Part shown: one piece after another, positions 1,987 through 55,186 of the stretch
Numbering within the stretch: the stretch's first letter is position 1
Layout of the letters: every line of letters starts with the position of its first letter
NCBI GenBank assembly: GCA_964521575.1
Contig: CAZFSR010000009.1
Span: forward strand, 10,055 to 74,054
Length of the DNA: 64,000 nucleotides
Direction: 5' to 3'
Source: an uncultured Synergistaceae bacterium
GTDB taxonomy: Bacteria > Synergistota > Synergistia > Synergistales > 79-D21
Notes under the pieces: model-generated
Database searches by the model: none
Told to the model about the DNA's origin: nothing
What the model saw: the letters and a program-made list of their open reading frames with translations, nothing else
Translations under genes and position numbers: made by a program

Positions 1987-2037
1987 TGAGACGGTTTCAA
2001 TTTCGGGTGAAAACTGGCCGGAAAAGAGGTGTGCCGG

Positions 2038-6137: not shown

Positions 6138-7919
6138 GTGGATCCTGGCTTGAAGCCCCTACGCGAGAACCCGTGCGCTGCTGCGAACGGAAGTGAAGAA
6201 GCCTTGCGGATGCGCCGCCTCTTTCGCCTGGTGGAAAACACCTTCAGCGAGGTCTACTTTTTTGGCGGGGATGACCTGCGGTTTGAATATGCGAACGCGG
6301 CCGCGGTGAGGAACACGGGATATTCCCCGGAGGAACTCTTCGGGATGACCCCCCTGGACCTCAAGCCCGAGTTCGACGCGGAAAGTTTTGCCCGCCTGCT
6401 GTTCCCCCTGCTGCAGGGAACCGTGCCCCATGTCCGGTTCCAAACGGTGCATCGCCGGAAGGATGGCTCGACTTACGAATGTGACGTCCTGCTTCAGCTT
6501 CTGGGCGATCCCGGGGAGAAGAGTTACGCCGCGATCGTCCGGGATGTGACGGACTGGAAGCGCGCCGTCAGGGAACTGGCCGAAAGCGAAGGCCGGTTCA
6601 AGAGCCTTTTTGAAAAGAACCGCTCGGTCATGCTCCTGATCGACCCGGACGGCGGGAGGATCCTGGACGCGAACGAAGCTGCCGTCAGTTTCTACGGCTA
6701 TTCACGCAAGAAACTTTGTTCCATGAGGATCACCGACATCAACCTCCTGTCGCCTGAAGAAGTCCAGGCCGAGATGAAGCGAGCGGAGGCAGGGGGAAAA
6801 GAGCGTTTCCTTTTCAGGCACCGGCTGGCGGACGGAACGGGGCGAGATGTGGAGGTCTATTCGGGACCGGTCAGCCATCAGGGAAGAACCTTGCTTTATT
6901 CCATCGTTCACGACGTGACGGAAAGGGTCGCCGCCGAGCGGGAGCTGGCCGAGAAGACGGCCCTTTTGAACCAGCTTTTCGAAAACGCCCCGTTTGCCAT
7001 TTTCCGGAGCCGGGTCGGCGGAGAGCTGGTCCGGGTCAACCGGGCGGCACAGGATCTTTTCGGCTACCTGCCGGAGGAGATGATCGGGCGGACGTCGGAC
7101 GAATTGATCGTGCCGGAAGACCGAAAGGATGAAGCCCAATCCTACACGGTACAGCTTCACGAAGCACGGCGGAAGGTGGCCTTTGAAAGCGTGCGAAAAC
7201 GGAAGGACGGTTCCCTCATGGACGTGTCCTTCTTCGGGTTCCCGATCCAGCTGGGGGGGGAGGTGATCGGGGGCTACGGGATCTACAACGACATTACGGC
7301 CCGGAAGGAAGCGGAACGGCTCCTGCGGGAGAGCTACCTGGAAATCCACAAGCAGCTGCTCGCCCTGAGACGGTCCTGGAACCAGACGGTCCACATCCTG
7401 GCGTCCGTGGTCGAGGCAAGGGATCCGTACACGGCCGGGCACCAGAAAAAGGTCGCCCAGCTGGCCGGAGAGATCGCCGCGCAGATGAAGCTGCCGGACG
7501 ACCAGGTGGACCAGGTGATCCTCGCGGCACTGGTCCACGATATCGGGAAGGTCGAGGTGCCGTCGGAGATCCTGTCGAAGCCCGGTTCGCTGAGCCCCCT
7601 CGAGCTGCAGCTGATACGGACGCACCCCGAGGCAGGGCGCCGGATTCTTTCCGGCCTGCAGACCCCCTGGCCCCTGGCGGAGATCATCTTCCAGCACCAC
7701 GAACGGCTCGACGGCAGCGGCTACCCCCAGGGGCTTTCCGGGGATGCGATCCTGCTGGAAGCCAGGATTATCGCCGTGGCCGACGTCGTCGAGGCCATGA
7801 CTTCCCACCGCCCGTACCGGCCGGCCTGGCAGGCCGAAGCGGTGGCGGCGGAGATGATCCGCCAGCGCGGGACCGCTTTTGACGCCGACGTGGTGGACGC
7901 CTGGCTCGAAATCCAGTAA
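6138..7919 (+). CDS. triple-PAS/PAC + HD-GYP cyclic-dinucleotide phosphodiesterase
   Basis: Three PAS/PAC units (HRRKDGS, HRLADGT, RKRKDGS); HDIGK, HHERLDGSGYP and ADVVEAM motifs; AAGGAGG RBS. Confidence 0.9.
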   Translation: MDPGLKPLRENPCAAANGSEEALRMRRLFRLVENTFSEVYFFGGDDLRFEYANAAAVRNTGYSPEELFGMTPLDLKPEFDAESFARLLFPLLQGTVPHVRFQTVHRRKDGSTYECDVLLQLLGDPGEKSYAAIVRDVTDWKRAVRELAESEGRFKSLFEKNRSVMLLIDPDGGRILDANEAAVSFYGYSRKKLCSMRITDINLLSPEEVQAEMKRAEAGGKERFLFRHRLADGTGRDVEVYSGPVSHQGRTLLYSIVHDVTERVAAERELAEKTALLNQLFENAPFAIFRSRVGGELVRVNRAAQDLFGYLPEEMIGRTSDELIVPEDRKDEAQSYTVQLHEARRKVAFESVRKRKDGSLMDVSFFGFPIQLGGEVIGGYGIYNDITARKEAERLLRESYLEIHKQLLALRRSWNQTVHILASVVEARDPYTAGHQKKVAQLAGEIAAQMKLPDDQVDQVILAALVHDIGKVEVPSEILSKPGSLSPLELQLIRTHPEAGRRILSGLQTPWPLAEIIFQHHERLDGSGYPQGLSGDAILLEARIIAVADVVEAMTSHRPYRPAWQAEAVAAEMIRQRGTAFDADVVDAWLEIQ

Positions 7920-41054: not shown

Positions 41055-42158
41055 ATGTTCACGGATTTGCTGACCGCCCTGGCCGTCGTCATCAACGGCA
41101 TCCCGCAGGGCATCCTGGCCCTGAGTTTCGGCTTCGCGGCCCTCCCCACGTCCCTGGCCTTCCTGGTGGGTATCGCCGGTTCCCTGGCCTTCAACTCGGT
41201 GGCCACAATCAGCTTCCAGGCTGAGACGATCACCCTGGCGGGGTCCCTCGGCCGGAACATCAGGGAGCGGCTGAGCCTGGTGTTCTGGGGCGGCATCTTC
41301 CTCCTCATTCCCTCGGTCCTGGGCATGAACGAGGCGATCGTGGCCTTCATCGGCCCCACCATCGTCACGTCGATGATGGCCGGCGTCGGCATCATGCTGG
41401 CCTTCGTGGCGGTCAACCTGTACGCCTCCGAGAAGTTCTCCGGTGCGGTCTCCTTCGTTTCGGCCCTGGCGGTCTGGTTCATCACGAAGGACCTGGCCAA
41501 GACGATCATCGTGTCGGTGCTGGCCTCGACCGCGGTCTACAACTATCTGCGCTACGTGGCGAAGAAGGACGTGGACGCTCCGGAGATCCACATGGAAAAC
41601 GAGCGTTTCCACTTCGGGAACATCGAGTGGTGCTTCTGGCGCAACCGGGCGGTTTTCCTCGGAGCGCTCGGCATCGCCTGCCTGAACATCGGGGCGAACA
41701 TCTCCTTCGGCAAGATCACGGGCAGCATCGCCAACGTGAACACGAACATCGACCACCTGGCGATCTACTCGAGCGTGGCGGACATCCTTTCGACCCTCTT
41801 CGGAGGCGGCCCGGTCGAGGCCATCATCTCCGGCACCGCCACGGCCCCGAACCCGCTGCGTTCCTCGGTGCTGATGATGGGCATCATGGCGGCGATCCTG
41901 CTTTTCAAGCTCCTGCCGGTGATCGGGCGGTACGTGCACCGGTCCTCGATCGCAGGGTTCCTGTTTATCCTGGGGACGTTCGTGACTTTCGCGACGAACA
42001 TCCAGGGCGCCATCGCCACGGCACCGACCTTTGCCGGACCTTACGGCTTCTCCCCCTGGGGGATGGTCATCGGTGCCACCACGCTGGTTTCGGCCCGCTG
42101 GAACCCGTTCTACGGACTGCTGGCCGGGCTGGGCATCAAGCTGTTCTTCCAGCTTTAA
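41055..42158 (+). CDS. NCS2/AzgA-like nucleobase permease
   Basis: Polytopic membrane protein (ISFQAET, GGGPVEAIISGT) co-transcribed with a purine PRTase. Confidence 0.7.
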   Translation: MFTDLLTALAVVINGIPQGILALSFGFAALPTSLAFLVGIAGSLAFNSVATISFQAETITLAGSLGRNIRERLSLVFWGGIFLLIPSVLGMNEAIVAFIGPTIVTSMMAGVGIMLAFVAVNLYASEKFSGAVSFVSALAVWFITKDLAKTIIVSVLASTAVYNYLRYVAKKDVDAPEIHMENERFHFGNIEWCFWRNRAVFLGALGIACLNIGANISFGKITGSIANVNTNIDHLAIYSSVADILSTLFGGGPVEAIISGTATAPNPLRSSVLMMGIMAAILLFKLLPVIGRYVHRSSIAGFLFILGTFVTFATNIQGAIATAPTFAGPYGFSPWGMVIGATTLVSARWNPFYGLLAGLGIKLFFQL

Positions 42159-42716: not shown

Positions 42717-42737
42717 AAGGTGCGTCTTAGGTTTTGT

Positions 42738-42763
42738 CAGGGGGGCGAAAGCCCCCCTTTTTC
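42738..42763 (+). repeat. left 26-bp direct repeat (terminator) of the NRPS cassette
   Basis: CAGGGGGGCGAAAGCCCCCCTTTTTC, identical to 48699-48724. Confidence 0.92.
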
Positions 42764-42846
42764 TTTCCCCTGCCCCGCTGATTGCTGTAACGGGTCTTTG
42801 TTTGGTAAGCTGGCTCAATGAAAGCAGGGTGACTGGGGGGAGTGTT

Positions 42847-43881
42847 ATGGGTTTGAGAGAAAGGTTCCCGCGCATTGTGGCGTTCATCATGAAGATCGGG
42901 TGCCTGGCTTTTCTTTTTTCCGGTGCCCTGCCAGTGGAGGCGGCATCATCCGCTTTGACCCCCATCCGTGCGGTGGTTCTGCCCTATATTACTTTTGCGC
43001 CGTTCTTCATCGCCAAGGACGAGGGGTATTTCGAGAAGGAGGGTCTGGACGTCGAGTTTGTCAGGCTGGTCCAGCCGATGGCGGGAGTGGCCGAGGTGGC
43101 CAAAGGCAGCATCGACATGACCCAGGTTGGCACGCGTGTCGGGATATTCAACGCTATGGGCCGGGGCGCAAACCTCCGCATCGTGGCGGACAAGGGCGGC
43201 TTTGCGGGGGAAAAAACGGCAACCAGCGGATTCCTGATCCGGAAGGAATTGCTTGACGCCAAGGGCAAACCTGACTGGGAGCGGATCAAAGGGCGGAAGG
43301 TCTCCGTGGATCCCACCAGCTTCTGGGGGTTCCTCTTCGAAAAGTACCTGTCTCGAAACGGCCTGAAGATGTCGGACTTCGATATCGAGGATTTGCCTGT
43401 AACGGTTCTGCCCGGGGCTTTCGATCAAGGGAACGTGGCGATCGCCCACGTTACCGAGCCCTGGGTTACGAAAATCACCCGCGGAGGGAAGGTCGTGCTG
43501 CTCGTGGCAGACGCCAGCCTGTCGCCGAACGCGCATTTCTCGGGAATCTGTTTTGGCCCCTCCCTGCTGGAAGGGAATCCCGAGGCAGGGGAGAGGTTCA
43601 TGGTGGCCTACCTTAAGGGTGTCCGCCAGTACAACAAGGGAAAAACGGACCGGAACATCGGGATCATCGCCAGGAACACCGGCCTGGACAGCCGAAGTGT
43701 CGCCGAGTCGGCGTGGCCGGCAATTCGCAACGACGGCCAAATGGATATCTCCGGCTTTGTCGAGTTTCAGCGGTGGGCAAAGGGAAAAGGATATCTTGAT
43801 GTCGTCGTCCCTGCTGAGAAAATCTGGGATCCCCGCTTCGTCGAACAAGCTAACCGCAAGCTGGGCGGTAAGAACCCCTGA
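42847..43881 (+). CDS. ABC substrate-binding protein, NMT1/SsuA/TauA-like
   Basis: Signal peptide; APFFIAKDEGYFEKEGLDVEF, GSID, FMVAYLKG; GGGGAG RBS at ATG 42847. Confidence 0.85.
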   Translation: MGLRERFPRIVAFIMKIGCLAFLFSGALPVEAASSALTPIRAVVLPYITFAPFFIAKDEGYFEKEGLDVEFVRLVQPMAGVAEVAKGSIDMTQVGTRVGIFNAMGRGANLRIVADKGGFAGEKTATSGFLIRKELLDAKGKPDWERIKGRKVSVDPTSFWGFLFEKYLSRNGLKMSDFDIEDLPVTVLPGAFDQGNVAIAHVTEPWVTKITRGGKVVLLVADASLSPNAHFSGICFGPSLLEGNPEAGERFMVAYLKGVRQYNKGKTDRNIGIIARNTGLDSRSVAESAWPAIRNDGQMDISGFVEFQRWAKGKGYLDVVVPAEKIWDPRFVEQANRKLGGKNP

Positions 43882-43882
43882 A

Positions 43883-46429
43883 ATGGAACTCGACGCCTAT
43901 CTCTCCAGGGGCTTTTGGGAAAGATTCGTAGAGATCGCCGACCGTTTTCCCGATATCCCGGCCTGGTCGCGGGAAGGGGAGAGCCTCGCCTACGGGGAGA
44001 TCCTTTCCCGGGCGGAAGACTTGGCCGGGCAGCTGGACAAGGTTACGCACGGCATTCGCGGGCTTGTGGTCGAAGTGGAGGCGACGCTGGTTCCGGGCAG
44101 CATCGTTTCTTTCCTGGCGGTTCTCAAGGCAGGGGCCGTCATCTTACCGGTGGATCCGGCCTTTCCCCTGGATTTTCGGCAGGAGATCCGCCGGCAGGTT
44201 TCCCCCATTGCCCGCCTGGAGGCAGGCGATGGCCCGGGAGATGTCTTTTTGCGACAGGACAAAATTCACGGTCCGGAGGGACCGCCCGTTCCTTTTGCAC
44301 CCGAAGATGCGGCCGTACTTCTCTGGACCTCGGGCTCCACAGGAAAGCCGAAAGGGATTCTTCTACCCCAGCAGGCTTTCCTCCTTGATGCGTGGAACCG
44401 CGTCAGGGATTATCACGTTCGAGCCGGCGACAGGGTCGCATGGACTGCCCCGCCTGTCCTTGCGGGACCCATCGGGATGCTTTGCTTCTCTCTCCTCGGT
44501 GGTGCGACGCTCGTTCCTTTCCCCCTGAAATCGATCGATGCGGGCGCCCTTTCCGGGCTTCTCCGCAGGGAGCGGGTAAGCTACTTCAATCCCCCGGTTT
44601 CCTATTTCAGGCAGTGGATGCTTGCCGAGGACGGCAAAGGATCCTTGCCCGACTTGCGCACGGTTGTCCTAGGCGGGCAGCCCGTTAGCTGGAAGGATGT
44701 CCGTGCCGTCCAGGGGAGCCTGTCCGAAGGAGCGAAACTGGTCCACCGCTACGCGGCCTCGGAAGCGGGCTTAATCTCCCAGGCCTTTTTCGACAGGTTT
44801 CATGCTACCGAAAACGAGGGGAGCGTACCGCTGGGATTTCCTCCCATGGGGAAGCGAACGGTCATCCTCGGGGAGGACGGAGCAATCCTGCCGGATGGGG
44901 AGATAGGTGAAATCGGTGTGGTCAGCCGCCACGGGGCGCTGGGGTATTGGAAGCGCCCCGACCTGAACAGTGAACGTTTTCGAAGGCTGCCCGGCGGGGA
45001 GACCCTGTTCCTCTCCGCAGACCTGGGCCGATTGAGGCCGGACGGCCAGCTGGAATTGCTTGGCAGAAGGGACGGCCAACTGAAAATCAGGGGCTTCCGG
45101 GTAGAGCCTGCCCAGGTCGAGGTGGCCTTGAGAAGCCTGCCCGGGGTGGCGGATGCGGTCCTGCTTCCGTGGGCCCCGCCTGCTACTCCCGAAGAAAATG
45201 AGCTTGTCGCCTACGTCGAGCCTGCCAGGGGTTCAAGGCTGGCTACCGACGGGTTGAGAGCCGGCCTCCGGGAAACCCTGCCAGAGTTCATGGTCCCTTC
45301 CAGGTACGTCCTGCTGGAAGAAATGCCGAGAACCCGGAACGGCAAGCCCGATCGTACTCGGCTCCCGGACCCGGGAACCTCCCGGCCGGACCTCACGGTG
45401 CGTTTTGTCCCGCCGGAAGGCAAGACGGAGGAGAGGCTTGCAGGGTTGTGGCACGAAGTGCTGGGGATCTCTCCCATCGGGGCGGAAGACGACTTTTTTG
45501 ATCTTGGGGGGCACTCCCTTTTGGCCGTTCGCTTGTTTTCCCGCATCGAAACGGTTTTCGGCAGGGACATTCCCCTGGCAGAGATGCTCCAGGCCAGAAC
45601 CGTGAGATCCATGGCGCGCCTGCTGGAGGCCCCGAAAGGTAAAAGGGAATGGAAGTGCCTTGTCCGGATCAACGTGGTGGGAAACCGGCCCAAGGTTTTT
45701 ATCGTTCATGGGGGTGGCGGCAATGTCCTTTGTTTTGCCCGGCTTGCGGCCCGCTTGACTGACTATGACGTATACGGTTTGCAGGCTCTGGGGCTGGACC
45801 GGCGCCACCTGCCCCAGCTTTCGGTGAGGGGGATGGCGGAGAGGTATGCGGCCGAAATCCGCGAGGAGCAGCCCCACGGCCCGTTTCGGATCGTCGGCTA
45901 TTCCTTTGGCAGTATCGTGGCCTTCGAACTGGCCCTTCTCCTGCAGGCCTCGGGTGAAGAGGTGGGCTTCCTGGGCCTGCTGGACAGGGCTATGCCTGCC
46001 CGGTCGTCCGCCCCTCCCCGCGCCAATCTCGTTTCGGAACTATGGGACCGGGCGACGACCCGCCTCAAGTTCCATTTGAGGCTTAATGCAGGGCGGCTTC
46101 TGCTGGGGGCAGGCCTGCCCGTTCCGTTCATGCAAAAAATCTACAATGCCGCGAACGGCTTCATGAGCCGGGGTTATGTCCCGCCGGCGGCATTCATGGG
46201 CAACATGGCCGTCTTCCAGACGGCGGAAAGACGAAACGAAGGGATCGATCCGGCTTCGGAGAGAGGATGGGGACCGCACGTAAAGGGGGAAACCCGGGTT
46301 TATGCCGTCCCGGGGACACATCACACCCTGCTTGATGATCCTCATGTCCGGGATGTAGCCAGGGTCCTTGATGCAGCCCTTGGCGAACCTTGTTCTTGTC
46401 CCCCCGGGGGGAAGTATCCGGGAAGTTGA
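43883..46429 (+). CDS. stand-alone NRPS-like enzyme, A-PCP-TE
   Basis: A3 WTSGSTGKPKG, A8 GRRDGQLKIRGFRVE, A10 NGK, PCP FFDLGGHSL, TE GYSFGS and GTHHTL. Confidence 0.92.
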   Translation: MELDAYLSRGFWERFVEIADRFPDIPAWSREGESLAYGEILSRAEDLAGQLDKVTHGIRGLVVEVEATLVPGSIVSFLAVLKAGAVILPVDPAFPLDFRQEIRRQVSPIARLEAGDGPGDVFLRQDKIHGPEGPPVPFAPEDAAVLLWTSGSTGKPKGILLPQQAFLLDAWNRVRDYHVRAGDRVAWTAPPVLAGPIGMLCFSLLGGATLVPFPLKSIDAGALSGLLRRERVSYFNPPVSYFRQWMLAEDGKGSLPDLRTVVLGGQPVSWKDVRAVQGSLSEGAKLVHRYAASEAGLISQAFFDRFHATENEGSVPLGFPPMGKRTVILGEDGAILPDGEIGEIGVVSRHGALGYWKRPDLNSERFRRLPGGETLFLSADLGRLRPDGQLELLGRRDGQLKIRGFRVEPAQVEVALRSLPGVADAVLLPWAPPATPEENELVAYVEPARGSRLATDGLRAGLRETLPEFMVPSRYVLLEEMPRTRNGKPDRTRLPDPGTSRPDLTVRFVPPEGKTEERLAGLWHEVLGISPIGAEDDFFDLGGHSLLAVRLFSRIETVFGRDIPLAEMLQARTVRSMARLLEAPKGKREWKCLVRINVVGNRPKVFIVHGGGGNVLCFARLAARLTDYDVYGLQALGLDRRHLPQLSVRGMAERYAAEIREEQPHGPFRIVGYSFGSIVAFELALLLQASGEEVGFLGLLDRAMPARSSAPPRANLVSELWDRATTRLKFHLRLNAGRLLLGAGLPVPFMQKIYNAANGFMSRGYVPPAAFMGNMAVFQTAERRNEGIDPASERGWGPHVKGETRVYAVPGTHHTLLDDPHVRDVARVLDAALGEPCSCPPGGKYPGS

Positions 46430-46442
46430 AGGAGACTTAGGC

Positions 46443-47225
46443 ATGTTGCACTGCAGGGGGCTTTCAAAACGTTTCGAGAGCGGGAACGGTTCCGTTACCG
46501 CCCTGGAGAGGGTCGACCTCGACCTGGCCGAAGGGGAGTTCCTGTGTGTTCTGGGCCCGTCCGGCTGCGGGAAGTCCACGCTCTTGCGGTTGGTGGCCGG
46601 GATCGTTCCCCCATCGGCAGGCAGCGTCGAGTTCGTTCCGGGATGCGGGCGTCCCCCGGGACGCCCCAGGTGCGCCATGGTGTTCCAGGAACACGGCTTG
46701 TTTCCCTGGATGACGGTTCTCGAAAACACGGGCTTCGGCCTGAAGATGCAGGGATTCGCACGGAAAGAGCGGGAAGCGATGTCGATAACCGTTCTGGAAC
46801 AGGTCGGCATGGGGGCCTTCGGGCGGCATTATCCCCACGAACTGTCGATGGGCATGCGCCAGCGTGTGGCGCTGGCCCGGGCTTTTGTTTCTTCCCCCGA
46901 TGTCCTCCTGATGGATGAGCCGTTTGCATCGCTGGACGCCCAGGCAAGGGCCGTCCTCCAGCAAGACCTGATTTCCTGGCAGGAAGATCGCGGCACGCCG
47001 GTCATTTTCATTACGCATGACATCGCTGAATCCCTTGTCCTTGCGGACCGGATCCTTGTCCTTTCGGCACGGCCTGGGAGGGTTTTGGCGAGCATCCCTC
47101 TGCCTCCGGGCCGAGGCCATTCGCCGGTGGCCGGTTTTGATCCCGATCTCGGGGCGATCGGCCGGGAGATCTGGGGCATGCTGGGGCAGGAATCCTGTCC
47201 CGAGCTGCAGGGTGCGATCTTTTGA
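46443..47225 (+). CDS. ABC ATP-binding protein (TauB/SsuB-like importer)
   Basis: GPSGCGKST, VFQEHGLFPW, ELSMGMRQR, LLMDEPF, FITHD. Confidence 0.92.
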   Translation: MLHCRGLSKRFESGNGSVTALERVDLDLAEGEFLCVLGPSGCGKSTLLRLVAGIVPPSAGSVEFVPGCGRPPGRPRCAMVFQEHGLFPWMTVLENTGFGLKMQGFARKEREAMSITVLEQVGMGAFGRHYPHELSMGMRQRVALARAFVSSPDVLLMDEPFASLDAQARAVLQQDLISWQEDRGTPVIFITHDIAESLVLADRILVLSARPGRVLASIPLPPGRGHSPVAGFDPDLGAIGREIWGMLGQESCPELQGAIF

Positions 47226-47995
47226 GTGCGAGGTTGAAGCAAATCCCACGGGCCCTGTTCCTGCCGTGCATCCTCCTCCTGGGCTGGGAATTGGGGGTCC
47301 GGGCAGGATGGGTTTCCCCCATGTTCTTCCCCGCTCCGACGACGATCGCGAAGACCCTGGCCGAACTGGCGAAAAGCGGGCGTTTGGGTGCCAATCTTCT
47401 TGCCACCCTGCTACGGGTGGCCCTGGGCCTGTCGCTGGGGGTTGGCCTGGGCCTGCCGCTCGGGTTGTTGATGGGCTGGAAGCCTTCATTCCGGGCTATC
47501 GTCGATCCCATGGTTGGCGCGACTCATGCCCTTCCAAAGATCGCCATCTACCCGATCCTGATGGTCCTCTTCGGCATTGGGGACGGTTCACGGGTCGCCT
47601 TGATCACGCTGGGGGCGTTTTTTCCCATGCTGGTCAACTCCATGACTGCGGTGCGCCAAATCGATCCCCGTTATTTCGAAGTCGCGGAAAGCTACGGTGC
47701 CAAGGGGTTCCGGATCCTCTCCGAGGTCATCTGGCCGGGAAGCCTGCCCCTTGTCCTTGCGGGCTTCCGCCTGGCCCTGAACGGAGCCTTGCTGCTGGGC
47801 ATCGCAGCGGAGCTCCTCACGGCCCGGGAGGGGTTGGGCGGGATGATCTGGATGGCCTGGCAGACCTTCAGGACGGAAGAACTCTATGCGGCGCTTTTCG
47901 TCACGGGACTCCTCGGTGTGGCTTTCAACAGCCTGACGGACCTGATGGCCGGGATTCTCGTCCCATGGCGGGCAGGGACAGAAAACGGCAAATAA
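47222..47995 (+). CDS. ABC importer permease (TauC/SsuC-like)
   Basis: FFPAP, LPKIAIYP, EAA loop (EVAESYGA), GLGGMI. Confidence 0.9.
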   Translation: MSARLKQIPRALFLPCILLLGWELGVRAGWVSPMFFPAPTTIAKTLAELAKSGRLGANLLATLLRVALGLSLGVGLGLPLGLLMGWKPSFRAIVDPMVGATHALPKIAIYPILMVLFGIGDGSRVALITLGAFFPMLVNSMTAVRQIDPRYFEVAESYGAKGFRILSEVIWPGSLPLVLAGFRLALNGALLLGIAAELLTAREGLGGMIWMAWQTFRTEELYAALFVTGLLGVAFNSLTDLMAGILVPWRAGTENGK

Positions 47996-47999
47996 GAGG

Positions 48000-48689
48000 G
48001 TGAAGAAACGTTTGCAGCCGCAAAACTGGCAACCGCTCTCCCCAAGCTTTCCGGTCAAGGTCTGGACCGTTTCCGTTTCTTCGGTTCTTGGTACTTGCGG
48101 GACTGCAGGGCTTTCAGATGCCGAGCGGGACCGGTCCGGGAGGTTTCGGTGCGAGGAGGATTCGATGCGCTTCTGTGCGAGCCGCCTACTCTTGCGAGAG
48201 GTCCTCGGGAGGCATCTGGGCATGAGGCCGGGGGACCTCCAGCTAGAAAAGGCCCCCGGAGGCAAGCTCACCGTCGTTTTGCCCCCCTGCTCACCCCCCG
48301 TGTTTTTCAGCCTTTCACGGTCCGGCGATTTTTGCACCGTCGCTCTTTCAGGTTCCGCCGAGGTCGGGGTGGATATCGAAAAAACAAGGGTTTTCCCGGA
48401 CTGGCCGGCCGTAGCCCAGGCTTGGCTGAGCAAGGGAGAAAGAAGCGCCATAACGGCCCTGGTTGGAGAGAACTCCCGTGCCGAAGCTTTCTTCAGGCTG
48501 TGGTGCGCACGGGAGGCTGCGGCGAAAGCCCTGGGGCTAGGGCTTGCCCTGGATCCTCGTTCTGCGGGGAGCCTTGAGGGGATCCTGGAGGGGGGGCGGG
48601 TCGTGGCCGTGTTCGGGGGAAGAACGGTCGAAGTGGCCGAGCTGGAGGCCCCCCAAGGGTACCGGCTTGCCGTGGCAAGTGAGGCATGA
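48000..48689 (+). CDS. Sfp-type 4'-phosphopantetheinyl transferase
   Basis: GKL, FSLSRSG, VGVDIE, WCAREAAAKALGLGL; start uncertain. Confidence 0.85.
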   Translation: MKKRLQPQNWQPLSPSFPVKVWTVSVSSVLGTCGTAGLSDAERDRSGRFRCEEDSMRFCASRLLLREVLGRHLGMRPGDLQLEKAPGGKLTVVLPPCSPPVFFSLSRSGDFCTVALSGSAEVGVDIEKTRVFPDWPAVAQAWLSKGERSAITALVGENSRAEAFFRLWCAREAAAKALGLGLALDPRSAGSLEGILEGGRVVAVFGGRTVEVAELEAPQGYRLAVASEA

Positions 48690-48698
48690 GTGCTTCTG

Positions 48699-48724
48699 CA
48701 GGGGGGCGAAAGCCCCCCTTTTTC
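48699..48724 (+). repeat. right 26-bp direct repeat (terminator) of the NRPS cassette
   Basis: Identical to 42738-42763; abuts the MFS stop codon. Confidence 0.92.
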
Positions 48725-49979
48725 ATTCCCTTTCCCGGACCAGGAAGGGCAGCAGGGCAAACATAGCCAGTCCCAGCGTCGCCCCGGCGTAGAAGGGGGC
48801 ATGGGGGCCGAAGCGCAGAAAAACAAGGCCCATGACCAGGGGGCCGACGGTTTGTCCCAGCCGGAGGACCATGCCGTTGAGGGACATGAAAACGGCGCGG
48901 TTCTCTTCGGGTGCCAGGTCGGAAAGCAGGGCCTGCGTCGCGGGAATGTTCATCCCCTGGGCGCACCCGTAGAGTGCCGTGGCGAAAAGCAGGAACGGAA
49001 GCCCGGGCATCAGCGGGATCAGGACCAGGGCCAAGGCGAAGAGGATGAACGACGTCCGCAGGACGTTGCTTTCCCGATAAATCCTGCCCAGCCGTCCGGC
49101 CTGGGAGGCGAGGATGGCGTTCGAGACCGACATGGATGAGGCCATGAGGCCGATGGAAAGGGGAGAAGCCCCGAACTTCGAGGACATCAGGACGGGCAGG
49201 TAGGTGTGGAAGGATCCGTAGAGGATGACGAAGGTCGATGTGCTGGCGAGAAAGAGCCCCAGGATGCGCGGGTCGCGCGCCATGCGGGCGCCCTGCAGCA
49301 GGTAGAGCTCGAGGGGAGGTTTCGATTCGGGGAGGGGAGGGACCTTGAGGATGAAAAGGGAGGCAAGGCCCACGGGAACGGCCAATAGCGGCAGGGCGAA
49401 GGGGGCATGCCAGCCCAGAAGCCCGAGGGTCCCGCCGAGGGCGGGGTAGATGGCCGTTCCCACGCTCAGCATCCCGGCGTTGAAACCGAGGGCGTCGATG
49501 CGCTTGTTTCCCCTGTAGAGGTCCCCGACGAGGGTCACGTTCATGCCGCTGAGCGAAGCGGCCCCCATCCCCTGGAGGAATCTCAGGGCGAGGAGGAGAT
49601 CGAAGTCTCGGGTGAGGGCGCAGGAGGCCCCCGCGAGGGCGAAGAGGAAGAGCGAGGGCACGAGCACGGCCTTGCGCCCCACGCGGTCTGCCATCACGCC
49701 CAGGAAGGGCGGGAGAAAGACGCCGGGGAGCGTGAAGGCCGTAATCAGCCAGCTGACCTGGGCGGGAGAGATGCCGAGGTCAGCGGAGATGGCCGGGAAA
49801 AGGGGGGCGACGCTGGCGACCCCAAGTACGGAGATCAGGGTGACGCCGAACACGACCTGCAGATTGGCGTCTCTGCAAAGGCTGAAATCAGGCTTTCGGG
49901 ATTCCGGGGCCGAACTTTCACCCCGTTTTTTCCTCCAGGCCGATTGTGCCGCTTCCCTGACCCACTTGTTCAGCACCAT
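48723..49979 (-). CDS. MFS transporter (DHA1-like)
   Basis: GVMADRVGRK motif A, RFLQGMG, GQTVGP; about 12 TMs. Confidence 0.88.
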   Translation of the reverse strand: MVLNKWVREAAQSAWRKKRGESSAPESRKPDFSLCRDANLQVVFGVTLISVLGVASVAPLFPAISADLGISPAQVSWLITAFTLPGVFLPPFLGVMADRVGRKAVLVPSLFLFALAGASCALTRDFDLLLALRFLQGMGAASLSGMNVTLVGDLYRGNKRIDALGFNAGMLSVGTAIYPALGGTLGLLGWHAPFALPLLAVPVGLASLFILKVPPLPESKPPLELYLLQGARMARDPRILGLFLASTSTFVILYGSFHTYLPVLMSSKFGASPLSIGLMASSMSVSNAILASQAGRLGRIYRESNVLRTSFILFALALVLIPLMPGLPFLLFATALYGCAQGMNIPATQALLSDLAPEENRAVFMSLNGMVLRLGQTVGPLVMGLVFLRFGPHAPFYAGATLGLAMFALLPFLVRERE

Positions 49980-50069: not shown

Positions 50070-50672
50070 ATGGAAAAGCGTGCGGAAAGCGATTACCCGA
50101 TCGAGGTCCTTTTGGCGCGAAGATGGAGCCCGAGGGTTTTTTCGGGAAGAAGCGTGGATGCGGAAACCGTGTGCAGCCTTCTCGAGGCGGCCCGGTGGGC
50201 TCCGTCCTGCTTCAACGAACAGCCCTGGAGTTTCATCGTGGCGACGAAGGAGGATCCTGGGGCGTTCAGTGACCTTCTCGGCTGCCTTCGCGAGGCCAAC
50301 CAGGCCTGGGCGAAGCATGCACCGGTGCTCATGGTGGCGGTCGCCAAGGCGGCCTTCGACCACAACGGCAAGCCGAACCGCCACGCGGGGCACGACGTGG
50401 GGCTGGCTGTGGAGAATCTCATGCTCCAGGCGGTTTCGATGGGGATGTTCGCTCACGCCATGGCGGGGTTCGACGCAGCGAAAGTGAGGGAACGTTACGG
50501 GGTGCCGGAAGGGCACGACCCTCTCGTGGCGATCGCGGTGGGCTACCCGGGGGATCCCGGGGATCTCCCCGACGACTTGAAGGAAAAGGAGCTGGCCCCG
50601 CGGGAGAGAAAACCTCTCGGCCGCTTCGTGTTCGGGCTGTCCTGGGGAAAGCCCTGGAGCGGCCTTCGGTGA
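50070..50672 (+). CDS. nitroreductase family protein
   Basis: RRWSPRVF, AARWAPSCFNEQPW, HDVG, AVGYPG. Confidence 0.9.
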   Translation: MEKRAESDYPIEVLLARRWSPRVFSGRSVDAETVCSLLEAARWAPSCFNEQPWSFIVATKEDPGAFSDLLGCLREANQAWAKHAPVLMVAVAKAAFDHNGKPNRHAGHDVGLAVENLMLQAVSMGMFAHAMAGFDAAKVRERYGVPEGHDPLVAIAVGYPGDPGDLPDDLKEKELAPRERKPLGRFVFGLSWGKPWSGLR

Positions 50673-50718
50673 GAAAGGGCCGTGTTTGGAAGCCGACAGT
50701 GCAGAAGGGGGAGTTCGA

Positions 50719-51081
50719 ATGATCCGAAAGGCTTCGGAATTGTCGAGGATTCGCAGGGAAGCGTTCACCAACGGGGTGGGAGGGGGGTTTGCCACCCACG
50801 CGCTTCCGCCGGGGGAGAATGTCCCCGGGAGCCGGTTCCAGATGGTTTCCCGGATCGAGCTGGATCCGGGGTCGAGCATCGGGGCCCATCTTCACGCGGA
50901 GAACGAGGAGATTTACTGGATCCTTTCCGGAGAGGGCGTGTACAACGAGGACGGCCGGGAGGTTCCCGCCGTCCCGGGCGACGTTTTCATCGCCCTGCAG
51001 GGGCACAGCCATGGCCTGAAGAACACGGGGTCCGGCCCGCTCGAGATGATCGCGGTGATCGCTGCCGACCGGAATCCCTGA
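50719..51081 (+). CDS. cupin domain protein
   Basis: GAHLHAENEEIYWILSGEG, GHSHGLKN. Confidence 0.88.
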   Translation: MIRKASELSRIRREAFTNGVGGGFATHALPPGENVPGSRFQMVSRIELDPGSSIGAHLHAENEEIYWILSGEGVYNEDGREVPAVPGDVFIALQGHSHGLKNTGSGPLEMIAVIAADRNP

Positions 51082-51088
51082 GAACCGC

Positions 51089-51610
51089 CTAGAGAATCGC
51101 GAGCCCCGCCAGCCCGAACAGGAGGAAAAGGGCTGGCGGGTTTTCCCTGAAGAAACGGAACCGGAGGGCCGCGATCCCCGCTGCGAAGAGCAGGGCGGGA
51201 AGGATGCCCGAAAAGGCCGTCTGGGCCAGGGGCAGGAACGCCAGGGTCAAAAGGGCGGCCACAGTGGGTCTCAGGGCGTTCCTGAAACGGTCCATGCACC
51301 CTTCGGGGCCGCACTTGAGCAGGGCAGAAACGGCGATGACGATAATCAGCGGGGCGCCGCAGACGGAGAGGGTGGCCACCGTCGCCCCGGTGAACCCGGC
51401 GCGCTGGAAGCCGACGAATGTGGCGGCATTCACGGCGATGGGGCCGGGGGTCACCTGGGCCAGGGCGAGGACCTGGTTGAAGCCGTCGAGGGTCAGCCAG
51501 CGGTAGTTGTCCACCAGGATGTGCCGGATCAGGGGAAGGGTCGAGATCCCGCCGCCGAAAGCCCCGATTCCCACTTGGGCGAAGCCCCAGGCCAGCTTCA
51601 GCAGTTCCAT
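51089..51610 (-). CDS. short-chain chromate-ion transporter subunit (ChrA family)
   Basis: GAFGGG, AQVTPGPIAVNAATFVG. Confidence 0.88.
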   Translation of the reverse strand: MELLKLAWGFAQVGIGAFGGGISTLPLIRHILVDNYRWLTLDGFNQVLALAQVTPGPIAVNAATFVGFQRAGFTGATVATLSVCGAPLIIVIAVSALLKCGPEGCMDRFRNALRPTVAALLTLAFLPLAQTAFSGILPALLFAAGIAALRFRFFRENPPALFLLFGLAGLAIL

Positions 51611-52140
51611 CGGTTTCCCTCCGGAAGAACGAGGCGGAGCCCGACCCCGCAGGCCATGGCGACCAGTGGGTGGAGGCCTGCCCACAAAATGAGGGCGATC
51701 ACCAGGGCATAGGGAAGGAAATTGATCCAGCGCGCCTTTCCCACGAGGGAACGCTTGACTTCCCCCCACACCAGGGTGGCGACGAGTGCGGCCACCGCGC
51801 AGAGGACGCCCTTGAAGAAGGCCGCCAGGAGCACGGAATCCCGGTGGCCCATCACGAAGCCGGAAAGGATGAGGATGGCGGAGAAAGGGGGGACCAGGAT
51901 TCCCGCCACGGAGGCAAGAGCCCCGGGTATCCCCGCGATCTTCCGGCCGGCCAGCCATGCCGAGCTCGTCGCGATGGGGCCGGGCATGGAGGTCGCCAGG
52001 GCGGCGATGTCGGACATCTCCTCTTCCGGGAAACCCCGCTTACGGAGTTCGGTTTTTGCCATCGCCAGGATGGCGATGCCGCCGCCGAAGGTGACGGCGC
52101 TGATTTTGAAGAACATGAGGAAGAGGGCCATAGGGCTCAT
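51598..52140 (-). CDS. short-chain chromate-ion transporter subunit (ChrA family)
   Basis: TFGGG, SMPGPIA, ILVPP. Confidence 0.88.
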   Translation of the reverse strand: MSPMALFLMFFKISAVTFGGGIAILAMAKTELRKRGFPEEEMSDIAALATSMPGPIATSSAWLAGRKIAGIPGALASVAGILVPPFSAILILSGFVMGHRDSVLLAAFFKGVLCAVAALVATLVWGEVKRSLVGKARWINFLPYALVIALILWAGLHPLVAMACGVGLRLVLPEGNRWNC

Positions 52141-52216
52141 TCTGCGGTTCTCCTTCCGGGTGCGCATCGGTTCCATTTTAACCGAAGCGCGGGAACCCCT
52201 TTTCGGATGCCCCCAT

Positions 52217-52247
52217 ACTTGCAAGTGATTTGCAAATACACTATCAT
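52217..52247 (+). promoter_or_regulatory. promoter with a Fur/Zur-type operator
   Basis: ACTTGCAAGT-G-ATTTGCAAAT (TTGCAA-N5-TTGCAA) overlapping -35 TTGCAA, 17 bp, -10 TATCAT. Confidence 0.7.
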
Positions 52248-52254
52248 CCTTTCC

Positions 52255-52701
52255 ATGGAAACCCTTTGCAATGCAGCCCTGCTGCTGAAGTCGAACGGGA
52301 TGCGGGTCACCCCGGCGCGCGTTCTCCTGCTGGAAGCCCTCCATTCCGGGAGAGGGCTTTTCACGGCGCAGGAACTTCATGGATTCCTGCCGGCCGGGAG
52401 CGCCGACCTTGTCACCGTCTACCGCTTCCTGGCCCTTCTCGTCAAGGCGAGGCTCGCGCGTGAGGTCGCCGGAACGGACGGCGTCGCCTACTACGAGATG
52501 GCCTGCAGGCACAACCCGGTCCATCCGCATTTCGAATGTCTCGGCTGCGGCAGGATCCTATGCCTGCCGGTTTTCCTGGAGGAAGATTCCGACCGGGTTT
52601 ATGCCTACGGAGAAGGACACGACATCGAGAGCGTTTCTGTTGTCTTCCGGGGAACCTGCTCGGAATGCCTGGCAAAGGCAGAGAAGGAGGAAAAAGGATG
52701 A
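52255..52701 (+). CDS. Fur-family regulator (probably Zur)
   Basis: MRVTPAR, TVYRFL, HPHFECLGCG, GTCSEC; heads the znuACB operon. Confidence 0.88.
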   Translation: METLCNAALLLKSNGMRVTPARVLLLEALHSGRGLFTAQELHGFLPAGSADLVTVYRFLALLVKARLAREVAGTDGVAYYEMACRHNPVHPHFECLGCGRILCLPVFLEEDSDRVYAYGEGHDIESVSVVFRGTCSECLAKAEKEEKG

Positions 52702-53549
52702 AACGTTTGATTCTTCTGTTGCTGATGGCCAGCCTGCCGACCGTTTTCGTCGGCTTTCTCCTTCACCGCCCTGTTTCCGCCGGCCCCTTGAAGGTGTTCG
52801 TCAGCGTCCCGCCGCAAAAGTACTTCGTGGAACGTGTGGGGGGAAACCGGGTCCGGGTGTCCGTCCTGATTCCTCCGGGGGCGGATCCCCACACCTTCGA
52901 ACCGCGGCCCGCCTCCATGGTCGAGCTCTCCCAGGCCCGGGCCTGGTTCACGATCGGGGTCCCCTTCGAGGACAACCTGTTGCCGAGAGTTGCCCCGATG
53001 AACCCGGAACTCGAGATCGTCCGGACCGAGAAGGGGATCGTCCGGACCGAATCGGCCCACGGGAGTGCCGATCCCCATATCTGGCTCTCTCCGCGCCTGG
53101 TGAAGAGCCAGGCGGAAAACATCCTGGCCGGGCTCATCAAGGCCGACCCCGCCGGGGAGAGGATATACCGGTCCAATGCGAGGCGTTTCCAGGCCGAGCT
53201 GGATGCCCTTGACCGGGAATTCAAAACCCTTTTTGCACCCGCCAGGGAAAAGTCGTTCCTGGTGTTTCACCCGTCCTGGGGTTACCTCGCCGCGGATTAC
53301 GGGCTCCGGCAGATCGCCATAGAGGTCGAAGGGAAGGAGCCGAAGGGGGCTGAGCTTTCCCGGATTATCGACCTGGCGAAAGAAAAGAGGATCCGGGTGA
53401 TCTTTGTCGAGCCCCAGTTTTCTTCCCGAAGTGCCGGAACGATCGCCGAGTCGATCGGGGCGAAGGTCGTGACGGCCGACCCCTTGGCGGCCAACTGGGC
53501 CGACAACCTGCGCAAGGCGGCCCGGGCCTTCTCCCAGGCTGCACGCTAG
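52698..53549 (+). CDS. znuA: zinc/metal ABC substrate-binding protein
   Basis: DPHTFEP, DPHIWLSP, FHPSWGY, FVEPQF. Confidence 0.9.
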   Translation: MKRLILLLLMASLPTVFVGFLLHRPVSAGPLKVFVSVPPQKYFVERVGGNRVRVSVLIPPGADPHTFEPRPASMVELSQARAWFTIGVPFEDNLLPRVAPMNPELEIVRTEKGIVRTESAHGSADPHIWLSPRLVKSQAENILAGLIKADPAGERIYRSNARRFQAELDALDREFKTLFAPAREKSFLVFHPSWGYLAADYGLRQIAIEVEGKEPKGAELSRIIDLAKEKRIRVIFVEPQFSSRSAGTIAESIGAKVVTADPLAANWADNLRKAARAFSQAAR

Positions 53550-53559
53550 CCGCAAAACC

Positions 53560-54360
53560 ATGGAAAACCGTGCGTACGACATCGAGCTGAGGGATGTCAG
53601 GTTTGCCTACAACGGGTCTGGCCCCGTGCTGGACGGGGTTTCCCTTGCCGTCAGGCCGAAGGAGTTCCTGGCGGTCCTGGGGCCGAACGGCGGGGGCAAA
53701 AGCACCTTGCTCCGAGTCATCCTCGGGCTTCTCGAACCCCAGGCCGGAACGGTTCGGCTGCTGGGTAGCCCCCCGGCGGAATCTGTGCGTCGCGTGGGAT
53801 ATGTTCCCCAGGACGCGAATTCGAACCGGGGCTTTCCCGTTTCGGTGGAAGACGTGGTCCTCATGGGCCGTTTCAGCGGGAAAGGCGCGCGATGGAAAGC
53901 CGGGGCCGAAGACCGGCGCGCGGCGGAAGAGGCCATGGCCCGGATGGGAATCCTGTCCGAGCGCCGGAAACGGATCGGGGAGCTTTCACAGGGACAACGC
54001 CAGCGTGTGGCGATTGCCAGGGCCCTGGCCGTGGAACCGGAGCTCCTGGTTCTCGACGAGCCCACCGCCAGCGTGGACCTGCAGACCCAGGCGGCTCTCC
54101 ACGAGATCCTGAAGGAGTTGAACCGCAGCATCACGATCGTCATGGTGAGCCACGACCTGACGGCCCTTACCAGTTGTGCGACTTCGGTGGCGTGCGTCAA
54201 CCGCACTCTTTTCCACCACGACCGCGCCGAGCTGACCGCCGAGATGTTCCAGTCGGCCTACGGCAGTTGTCCGGTCGAGCTCATCGCTCACGGGATCCCG
54301 CACCGGGTCCTGCATCGCCACGAAAACAACACCGGGCAAGGGGACCAGGATCATGCTTGA
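53560..54360 (+). CDS. znuC: zinc/metal ABC ATP-binding protein
   Basis: [31 protein letters not shown] tail. Confidence 0.9.
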
Positions 54361-55186
54361 CGCCCTCCAGTTCGGCTTCATGAGGAACGCCCTGTTCGCG
54401 GGGCTTCTGGTCAGCCTCGCCTGCGGGATCATCGGGACCCTGGTCGTGGCCAACCGTCTTGTCTTCCTCGCGGGAGGCATCGCGCATTCAGCCTACGGAG
54501 GCGTCGGGCTCGCGCTCTATTTCGGCTTCTCTCCCTTTTTCGGGGCGATGGGCTTCAGCCTTGCGATGGCTCTGCTTCTCTCGGCCATCACCGTGAAGGG
54601 CAGGAACCGGGCGGATACCGCGGTAGGGGTTCTCTGGGCCGTGGGCATGGCCCTGGGGGTTATCCTCGTCGACCTGTCGCCCGGGTACAGGGCCGATCTC
54701 ATGAGCCTGCTTTTCGGAAGCATCCTCACCGTGAGTTACCGGGAACTCTGGCTGATGGGGGGAACGACGGTCCTCGTCGCCGGGGTCGTGGCCCTGAAGT
54801 ACCGGGACCTGCTGGTCCTCTCATACGACCCGGAATTTGCCGCGACGCGCGGGTTGGACGTGGTCGGCCTGCATACGCTGCTGCTCCTCCTCGTGGCGGC
54901 CGGTACAGTGGTGGCCATCCACGCTGTGGGGCTGATCCTGGTCATTGCCCTCTTCACCATTCCGCCGACCCTGGCGGAACGGTCCTGCCGCTCCCTGGCC
55001 TCGATGATGGCCGTCTCGGCCGCCTGGAGCGCGCTATTCACCTTCCTCGGGCTGGATCTCTCCTACCGGTTCAACCTCACTTCCGGCGCCACCATCATCC
55101 TGGTCGCGGCCTTTGCCTTCTTCCTGTTCTCGATCCGGGACGCAAAAGGCAGGGGCGGGATCCGGAAGACCCCGCCCCAGTCCTGA
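54353..55186 (+). CDS. znuB: zinc/metal ABC permease
   Basis: GIAHSAYGG, LFGSIL, VGLIL, TSGATII. Confidence 0.9.
   Translation: MLDALQFGFMRNALFAGLLVSLACGIIGTLVVANRLVFLAGGIAHSAYGGVGLALYFGFSPFFGAMGFSLAMALLLSAITVKGRNRADTAVGVLWAVGMALGVILVDLSPGYRADLMSLLFGSILTVSYRELWLMGGTTVLVAGVVALKYRDLLVLSYDPEFAATRGLDVVGLHTLLLLLVAAGTVVAIHAVGLILVIALFTIPPTLAERSCRSLASMMAVSAAWSALFTFLGLDLSYRFNLTSGATIILVAAFAFFLFSIRDAKGRGGIRKTPPQS

Follow-up and report, generated by a model that had tools for sequence, protein, structure and literature searches.

A conserved operon joins a binding-protein-dependent importer to a stand-alone, carrier-protein-based activating enzyme in an uncultured Synergistaceae bacterium

In a 64,000-nucleotide stretch of DNA from an uncultured Synergistaceae bacterium (assembly GCA_964521575.1, contig CAZFSR010000009.1; the whole stretch is called the window below), five forward-strand genes at 42847-48689 are translationally coupled. 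In order, they encode a solute-binding protein (SBP), an enzyme related to non-ribosomal peptide synthetases (NRPSs) with adenylation (A), peptidyl carrier protein (PCP) and thioesterase (TE) domains, the ATPase and the permease of an ATP-binding cassette (ABC) importer, and an Sfp-type 4'-phosphopantetheinyl transferase (PPTase). An initial annotation, made from the sequence alone, had described five coupled genes with these domains, and Pfam and NCBIfam searches recover all of them on the forward strand. The successive gene junctions measure 1 nt, 13 nt (holding an AGGAG ribosome-binding site for the ATPase gene), a 4-nt overlap in which the TTG start of the permease overlaps the TGA of the ATPase, and 4 nt. 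As annotated, the ATG of the A-PCP-TE gene lies 1 nt past the SBP stop. The genes form a real, conserved and self-contained operon with the following features.

42739-42758, forward strand: intrinsic terminator hairpin, left copy, AGGGGGGCGAAAGCCCCCCT followed by TTTTTC, after the gene for adenine phosphoribosyltransferase (APRT)
42782-42811, forward strand: candidate promoter, TTGCTG (42782-42787), 18 nt, TAAGCT (42806-42811)
42847-43881, forward strand: SBP, 344 aa, NMT1/SsuA/TauA fold of NitT/TauT-type ABC importers (Pfam NMT1 5.7e-12, NMT1_2)
43883-46429, forward strand: NRPS-like A-PCP-TE enzyme, 848 aa (Pfam AMP-binding, AMP-binding_C, PP-binding, Thioesterase)
43883-45382, forward strand: A domain, residues 1-500 of the A-PCP-TE enzyme
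45431-45625, forward strand: PCP, residues 517-581, with Ser545 in GGHS
45692-46375, forward strand: TE, residues 604-831, with Ser in GYSFG, Asp in LLD and His in GTHHT
46443-47225, forward strand: ABC ATPase, 260 aa, TauB/ProV/PotA-like (Pfam ABC_tran 2e-30)
47222-47995, forward strand: importer permease, 257 aa, BPD_transp_1, SsuC/TauC/SaoP-like (Pfam 4.7e-24)
48000-48689, forward strand: Sfp/HetI-type PPTase, 229 aa (Pfam ACPS, PF01648, 6.9e-14; AASDHPPT_N, PF22624, 4e-07)
48700-48719, forward strand: terminator hairpin, right copy, AGGGGGGCGAAAGCCCCCCT followed by a T-run, 11 nt past the PPTase stop

The borders of the operon are sharp. The initial annotation had presented it as a discrete, self-contained unit, and two copies of one terminator hairpin indeed bracket the five genes; the start of its range at 42738 coincides with the terminator of the upstream APRT gene, and no gene starts there. 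This left hairpin isolates the cassette from transcription coming from upstream, and a similar hairpin is found 3' of APRT in a related locus, L004 (related loci carry L numbers throughout). The perfect hairpin occurs in only two identical copies in the window, as part of a direct repeat of about 40 nt (42737-42777 and 48698-48738) that flanks the cassette exactly. L004 holds the left copy of this repeat only. The repeat could be a terminator that was duplicated when the cassette was inserted or rearranged, or one terminator sequence that was reused. As for the promoter proposed by the initial annotation, its sequence is present at 42782-42811, while a generic consensus scan makes no call there. 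The candidate -10 box TAAGCT is directly preceded by TGg, as in an extended -10 element, and the string CTTTnTTTGrTAAGCTG, which includes the TGnTAAGCT element, is kept upstream of the homologous operon in L170, so that a promoter role may be proposed for it. The exact A-PCP-TE protein is also present, with the same neighbors, on Logan metagenome contigs. For the adjoining APRT, the best named relatives belong to Thermovirga/Thermovirgaceae and Synergistaceae, which places the host among the Synergistota.

The transporter genes qualify as a NitT/TauT-type importer, comprising a secreted SBP with NMT1 fold, a BPD_transp_1 permease and an ABC_tran ATPase. The SBP carries an N-terminal Sec signal peptide (...SGALPVEA/ASS) and belongs to a family of at least 568 members. 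Every SBP in this family has a signal peptide or a lipobox, including those without adjoining ABC genes; on this ground we rejected the idea that the NMT1 protein acts in the cytoplasm, in the manner of Thi5. With the SBP outside and an ATP- and PPTase-dependent enzyme inside, the transported molecule is the only plausible link between the two. The AlphaFold2 (AF2) model of the SBP (pLDDT 91) was compared using Foldseek and matches TauA, thiamin-SBP, SsuA, Thi5, NrtA/CmpA and PqqT at TM scores of 0.6-0.7 and only 12-20% identity.

It could be argued that we are dealing with an ordinary importer for sulfonate, taurine, a thiamine precursor or nitrate, which shares its operon with an unrelated NRPS-like gene by chance or as a selfish operon. 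Indeed, SsuA, SsuC, TauC and TauB are the curated models that match the SBP, permease and ATPase best, the fold neighbors of the SBP include TauA, SsuA and thiamin-SBP, and the SBP fold, permease family and ATPase family are those of TauABC/SsuABC (TC 3.A.1.17). Yet all of these matches fall far under the curated NCBIfam cutoffs: the SBP reaches 50.7 of the 163.5 bits required for SsuA_fam (TIGR01728) and 22 of 304 for TauA, the ATPase about 200 of 357 for the taurine ATPase TauB, and the permease 119 of 347 for SsuC, with all its other matches likewise under cutoff. None of the three proteins can thus be assigned to the TauA, SsuA, TauC, SsuC or TauB equivalogs, which leaves no ground for taking taurine or a sulfonate as the ligand, and the Tau and Ssu importers are paired with desulfonating oxygenases, not with adenylating enzymes. 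Identity with SaoABP, a different system, was also considered and rejected, the matches being under cutoff. Together with the conservation of the pairing described below, these data make an ordinary importer very improbable.

The second component is a stand-alone A-PCP-TE enzyme with three domains on one polypeptide. The Pfam matches (AMP-binding 5e-41, PP-binding 3e-16, Thioesterase 3e-30) span residues 17-831 of 848 and leave no space for a condensation (C) domain, in agreement with the absence of such a domain from the initial annotation. In the sequence and the alignments, the functional motifs are intact: A3 (TSGSTGKPKG), A8 (GRxDxQxKIRGxR), the A10 Lys, the GGHS Ser of the PCP and the Ser/Asp/His triad of the TE. 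The A5 motif is divergent, with HRYAASE instead of NxYGPTE. The A domain belongs to the NRPS type, with LgrA, SrfA-C, EntF and AB3403 as the best PDB sequence matches; the TE resembles type-I TEs such as those of NocB, fatty acid synthase (FAS), Pks13 and EntF. The cognate PPTase shows the two-domain composition (AASDHPPT_N followed by ACPS) and the length of about 230 aa of Sfp-type enzymes, whereas its HetI score (82 against a cutoff of 370) excludes it from that equivalog. We place its GTG start at 48000, 4 nt past the permease stop. Taken from 48165, as in the public gene call, the protein has 174 aa and would lose the AASDHPPT_N domain (residues 36-115), while the PPTase homologs of 229-245 aa that follow A-PCP-TE genes in L004, L006 and L170 fit the upstream start.

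The substrate-binding pocket of the A domain departs from that of amino-acid-activating domains. We mapped the specificity positions via the alignment with LgrA, using GrsA numbering, and obtained A235 G236 G239 F278 V299 G301 R322 L330 I331 K517. Asp235 binds the alpha-amino group of the substrate. In the window enzyme an Ala stands in the column of the Asp of the LgrA motif SFDGS, and this Ala is invariant across the close family. Lacking Asp235 of the FDxS motif, the domain falls outside the alpha-amino-acid-activating A domains. By the same column extraction, not one of about 36 A domains linked to an SBP has Asp235, compared to 65 of 72 generic NRPS A domains, a control in which the extraction yields recognizable Stachelhaus codes and in which Leu at position 278 in most codes probably reflects a one-column alignment shift. 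Because Asp235 is replaced, the substrate should be a carboxylic acid without an alpha-amino group. Arg at position 322 or 299 is common among the SBP-linked A domains, and the window pocket carries such an Arg. From the composition of the pocket, including three Gly residues, the substrate is probably bulky, with an anionic or strongly polar group.

The juxtaposition of SBP and NRPS-like enzyme is more than chance, as the gene set recurs in independent contigs and the SBP almost always lies beside an adenylating enzyme. SBP relatives with 55-90% identity are found in the same kind of cassette with a varied gene order and copy number, as in the following loci.

L006: ATPase, permease, SBP, A-PCP-TE, PPTase
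L170: ATPase, permease, SBP, A-PCP-TE, PPTase, SBP, A-PCP-TE
L004: A-PCP-TE, ATPase, permease, SBP, A-PCP-TE, SBP, A-PCP-TE, PPTase

The L004 contig stems from an anaerobic chloroform-dechlorinating consortium (PMC11324032). The ATPase homologs in these three loci are likewise 260 aa long. SBPs with only about 40% identity also adjoin A-PCP(-TE) genes (L007, L168, L169), so that SBP, ABC genes and A-PCP(-TE) are common to the window, L004, L006, L007, L168, L169 and L170. To extend the comparison, metagenome contigs were scanned with a profile of 32 SBPs, giving 80 loci whose content was derived from tblastn searches with the window proteins and from clustering of all open reading frames (ORFs). 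In these loci, which were thus sampled from the SBP side only, a gene for an adenylate-forming enzyme is present in 50 of the 53 SBP loci that reach 3 kb and in 27 of the 28 that reach 8 kb, usually at most 250 nt from an SBP gene. Such a pairing across very divergent sequences and gene orders argues against an ordinary importer with an unrelated passenger gene, as does the joint duplication of SBP and enzyme.

The synteny whose conservation the initial annotation had proposed to check holds in independent contigs. Among the outcomes that would speak against its proposal, it had named that homologous NRPSs mostly lack the ABC genes or that the operon matches a characterized cluster. At 45-63% identity the former is not the case: the three homologs in L004, the one in L006 and the two in L170 all keep the ABC genes. 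NRPSs without them, at about 30% identity, are ordinary amino-acid-activating modules with Asp235. Indeed, a profile search of the contigs with the NRPS alignment returned 80 ordinary modules (26-36% identity; one partial, 44%) with no SBP nearby; this search is saturated by the generic PCP motif DDFFDLGGH and uninformative on synteny, and served as the Asp235 control. Among protein representatives, one A-PCP-TE homolog has 87% identity, and multi-module mega-NRPSs otherwise rank first. Regarding the latter outcome, neither the curated family models nor the open-access full text that was searched contain a description or model of a unit of SBP, A-PCP-TE and PPTase.

The SBPs and A-PCP-TEs of the window, L006, L004 and L170 fall into the same three orthologous pair types. 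Within a pair type, SBP identity is 71-77% and A-PCP-TE identity 59-68%; between pair types these values are 52-64% and 43-55%, respectively. The pocket code differs from one pair type to the next: AG[G/A]FVGRL[I/V]K, AGAFTGRL[L/V]K and AGQFSGRLVK. SBP and A-domain distances are correlated (r=0.85; Mantel 0/2000) over 15 adjoining pairs, a small sample of mostly close relatives, and the correlation persists when the permease is taken into account (partial r=0.92; 8 of the pairs have a permease). Judged by these sequence comparisons, an SBP and its A-PCP-TE form a matched pair that is passed on, and duplicated, together.

Beyond the A-PCP-TE type, the SBP family is associated with several other classes of adenylate-forming enzymes. 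These partners are A-PCP proteins, some with an LpxL-type acyltransferase either fused or adjacent; stand-alone enzymes of about 520-550 aa resembling acyl-CoA synthetases, with generic FadD/MenE-type matches (CoA, coenzyme A); and a PaaK-like family of about 540 aa. The latter has no Pfam or NCBIfam match; a profile comparison shows weak similarity to structures of phenylacetate-CoA ligase (4r1l, E=5e-5), and its genes often have a second PaaK-like gene beside them. Members of this family are located directly upstream of SBP homologs in 32 of 87 loci (for instance L107:582-2213 on the forward strand, L090:4395-6026 and L120:6274-7905) and share the motifs GGTTGAGTR and FTE.G. They are probably divergent adenylate-forming enzymes. 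Loci combining PaaK-like, SBP and ABC genes often also encode a type I phosphodiesterase (PF01663) and a polysaccharide deacetylase (PF01522), as seen in L090, L102, L104, L107, L111 and L158. Two further variations were observed. L168:7976-18605 contains four tandem SBP genes with a gene for a TonB-dependent receptor inserted among them, followed by a split ABC ATPase gene, a permease gene, an A-PCP gene and a TE encoded by an ORF of its own, perhaps an A-PCP-TE broken by a frameshift, whereas in L129 a methyltransferase domain is fused N-terminally to the A domain.

Based on these observations, we propose that the cassette imports an exogenous carboxylic acid without an amino group, activates it as a carrier-protein thioester and off-loads it by the TE, possibly onto an acceptor; we give this model a probability of roughly 0.55. 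The secreted SBP would capture an exogenous carboxylic acid devoid of an alpha-amino group, probably a bulky molecule with an anionic or strongly polar group, and the NitT/TauT-type ABC importer would move it into the cytoplasm. There, the A domain of the co-evolving A-PCP-TE would adenylate the acid and load it as a thioester on the PCP, which the PPTase of the cassette would have converted to its holo form beforehand. The C-terminal TE with its intact Ser-Asp-His triad would finally off-load the acyl group. Transfer to an acceptor, or an intramolecular or dimerizing release, is more likely than hydrolysis, since the latter would amount to a futile cycle. We infer that the ligand of the SBP is the substrate of the A domain, and likewise the direction of the flow and the fate of the thioester.

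The initial annotation had left the choice between such an import-then-activate pathway and a system that makes a small molecule and imports it again; of these two mechanisms, the former is favored and the latter is weaker, for several reasons. In sister loci, members of the same SBP family accompany CoA ligases, and as CoA thioesters are not exportable, the SBP ligand in those loci must be the substrate of the enzyme and not its product. In addition, SBPs often outnumber the enzymes, up to four to one, and the presence of a TonB-dependent receptor among the four SBPs of L168 follows a scavenging logic. Finally, no precursor, tailoring or exporter gene is kept family-wide. The lack of a tailoring enzyme had already been pointed out, and precursor-supply and tailoring genes are indeed absent.

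Modules of acid catabolism or salvage that combine uptake with thioesterification offer a functional parallel. In vectorial acylation by FadL/FadD, in clusters of an aromatic-acid ABC transporter and a CoA ligase, and in lysophospholipid repair by LplT-Aas, a transporter is likewise found beside an adenylate-forming enzyme and the acid is trapped as a thioester; sister loci of the SBP family themselves use acyl-CoA synthetases or PaaK-like ligases. Unlike in these modules, the thiol in the window is that of a built-in carrier with its own PPTase and a TE, and not CoA or a housekeeping acyl carrier protein (ACP), and the SBP is of the NitT/TauT class.

A number of points weigh against the proposed import and activation of an exogenous acid. 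The combination of a TE with a dedicated PPTase is a hallmark of secondary-metabolite synthesis rather than of nutrient assimilation, and a gene for an efflux-type transporter of the major facilitator superfamily (MFS) is kept beside the cassette in the three closest genomes. The fold neighbors of the SBP bind very diverse ligands, so the structural model gives its fold class and not its ligand. No hint at the ligand comes from regulation either: an Rfam search of the whole window, the 5' region included, finds neither a riboswitch nor any other RNA, and no regulator gene is present at the cassette. The extension from the CoA-ligase-type sister loci, with 30-40% SBP identity, to the window is made by analogy. 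Lastly, the one-sided sampling of the association and the small mirror-tree sample, both stated above, count here as well.

The MFS gene bears directly on the competing scheme, in which the A-PCP-TE makes a chelator, signal, quinone or furanone from an endogenous acid, an MFS protein exports it and the SBP-ABC system retrieves the product or its loaded form. The initial annotation stated that there is no exporter in the cassette, which is correct, yet a convergent, efflux-type MFS gene starts 34 nt downstream.

48723-49979, reverse strand: convergent MFS efflux-type transporter (Pfam MFS_1 2.2e-63)

The best matches of this protein, all sub-threshold, are siderophore exporters, with the bacillibactin exporter BcbE first among the NCBIfam models (118 bits against a cutoff of 600). 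It is kept in L004 and L170 as well as in the window, but absent from L006, L168, L169 and the metagenomic loci; it is possibly an accessory to the cassette. An A-PCP-TE with a PPTase is moreover a biosynthetic signature, L168 encodes a TonB receptor, and the co-diversification of SBP and enzyme would fit product-specific receptors equally well. Against this stand the CoA ligases that partner the same SBP family in sister loci, the presence of several SBPs per enzyme, an SBP of the NitT/TauT class instead of the FepB/FhuD class of siderophores, and a 5' region in which no Fur-box-like sequence is seen by eye (no formal scan was made). Synthesis followed by re-import is therefore unlikely in our opinion.

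Two known systems can be compared with such biosynthesis. The enterobactin locus (EntF, EntD, EntS, FepBCDG) similarly combines an NRPS ending in a TE with its own PPTase, a nearby MFS transporter and an SBP-dependent importer. In contrast to this locus, the window cassette has no C domain and no genes for an aryl acid or other precursor, its SBP and permease belong to another class, and iron regulation is not evident. Of the features of a siderophore system, precursor genes are missing, the MFS gene is near but not family-wide, and a TonB receptor occurs in one relative only. The quinone and furanone synthetases RalA, EchA, TdiA and AtrA are also A-PCP-TE enzymes without a C domain and with loss of Asp235. 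Enzymes of the RalA/TdiA type dimerize endogenous aryl alpha-keto acids and are not known to be linked to an SBP importer, whereas the window pocket carries Arg322 and three Gly residues. On the analogy with alpha-keto acid condensation by RalA and TdiA, which the initial annotation had drawn, these data speak neither for nor against.

The nature of the off-loading step leads to a variant of the import-then-activate model, in which the TE would use the PCP-bound imported acid to esterify a glycan, lipid A or a glycolipid of the envelope. This variant takes its inspiration from relatives without a TE, in which the A-PCP enzyme is combined with an acyltransferase of the LpxL family (PF03279). 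AlmG is also a member of the LpxL family. The fusion occurs twice in L167, L007 has a separate, adjoining acyltransferase gene, and L140 and L160 show weak C-terminal matches to the same part of the PF03279 profile. These A-PCP and LpxL-type genes lie beside SBP homologs at the following positions.

L167:1624-9175
L140:8967-11972
L160:5101-8061
L007:8267-11033

The PPTase gene of L006 runs, with its stop, into the start of a glycosyltransferase (GT) gene of family GT4; GT2 and LPG_synthase_C genes come next. Furthermore, the window TE resembles, among others, the acyl-transferring TE of Pks13, and surface-polysaccharide genes are located upstream in both the window and L004. Nevertheless, the window enzyme ends in a TE and has no LpxL domain, so a transferase role could be assigned to it by analogy only. 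Between the polysaccharide genes of the window and the cassette lie MscL, a hypothetical gene, APRT and a strong terminator, and envelope genes are missing from the surroundings in L169 and other loci. Overall, we consider an envelope decoration by the window cassette rather unlikely. A broader version would describe a widespread pathway of uncultured anaerobes and other bacteria in which dedicated SBPs, at times with a TonB receptor, capture the acid, either the TE or a fused LpxL-type transferase decorates lipid A or another envelope glycolipid with these exogenous building blocks, and in which the specificities of SBP and A domain co-evolve in pairs; this, too, we put forward as doubtful.

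The systems that come to mind for such a decoration are AlmE-AlmF-AlmG of Vibrio cholerae and, more loosely, DltABCD, with which the window shares the logic of a stand-alone adenylation function, a dedicated carrier and a terminal transferase to an acceptor. The TE-less family members, being A-PCP-LpxL-type acyltransferase fusions, even reproduce the architecture of AlmEFG, where a carrier-bound acyl unit is passed to lipid A (PMC4278540). The Alm and Dlt systems use endogenous Gly or D-Ala and are not known to have an importer, whereas the A domains of this family lack the amino-binding Asp and have an SBP importer as conserved partner. In addition, the release domain in the window is an alpha/beta-hydrolase TE, and not an LpxL or MBOAT protein. 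With a TE in place the window enzyme is not AlmEFG-like, and PF03279 is found only in its TE-less relatives.

If the import and activation of an exogenous acid is correct, the cassette represents a recurrent, unannotated unit in which an SBP-dependent importer is hard-wired to carrier-protein-based acid activation, a pairing that recurs in dozens of uncultured bacteria and would, on this reading, extend to hundreds of mostly uncultured ones. The co-inherited SBP would then be a soluble and easily screened reporter of the A-domain substrate, providing a route to deorphanize NRPS-like A domains. The model also points to exogenous acids that are scavenged by anaerobes such as Synergistota, for metabolism or envelope modification. 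Moreover, the analysis exposes the PaaK-like family of about 540 aa, which lacks a Pfam or NCBIfam model and holds the same position in most sister loci.

A 367-aa protein without Pfam or NCBIfam match is encoded at 41055-42158 on the forward strand, with MscL on one side and APRT on the other; it is conserved in this place in L004 and, partly, in L170. Downstream of the MFS gene, at 50070-55186, the window contains genes for a nitroreductase, a cupin, two chromate-transporter halves, a Fur-family regulator and ZnuABC; the nitroreductase, cupin and chromate-transporter halves are kept with the cassette in L004 and L170 and not in more distant loci. A role in the cassette was considered and rejected for the 367-aa gene, APRT, nitroreductase, cupin, ChrA and Zur-ZnuABC, because they are syntenic in the closest lineage only and absent from L006, L168 and L169.

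Further upstream, at about 20000-40300, the window carries a surface-polysaccharide cluster that encodes MurJ, an asparagine-synthase-like protein, a sugar transferase and several GT1/GT2/GT4/GT11 enzymes. The GC content falls to 48-52% in the distal part of this cluster (32-40 kb), as compared to about 63% elsewhere, a composition that suggests horizontal acquisition. Near the beginning of the window, a 1311-aa autotransporter with a C-terminal beta-domain (2029-5964, forward strand) is followed by a triple-PAS, HD-GYP-type (HD_5) signaling protein (6138-7919, forward strand).

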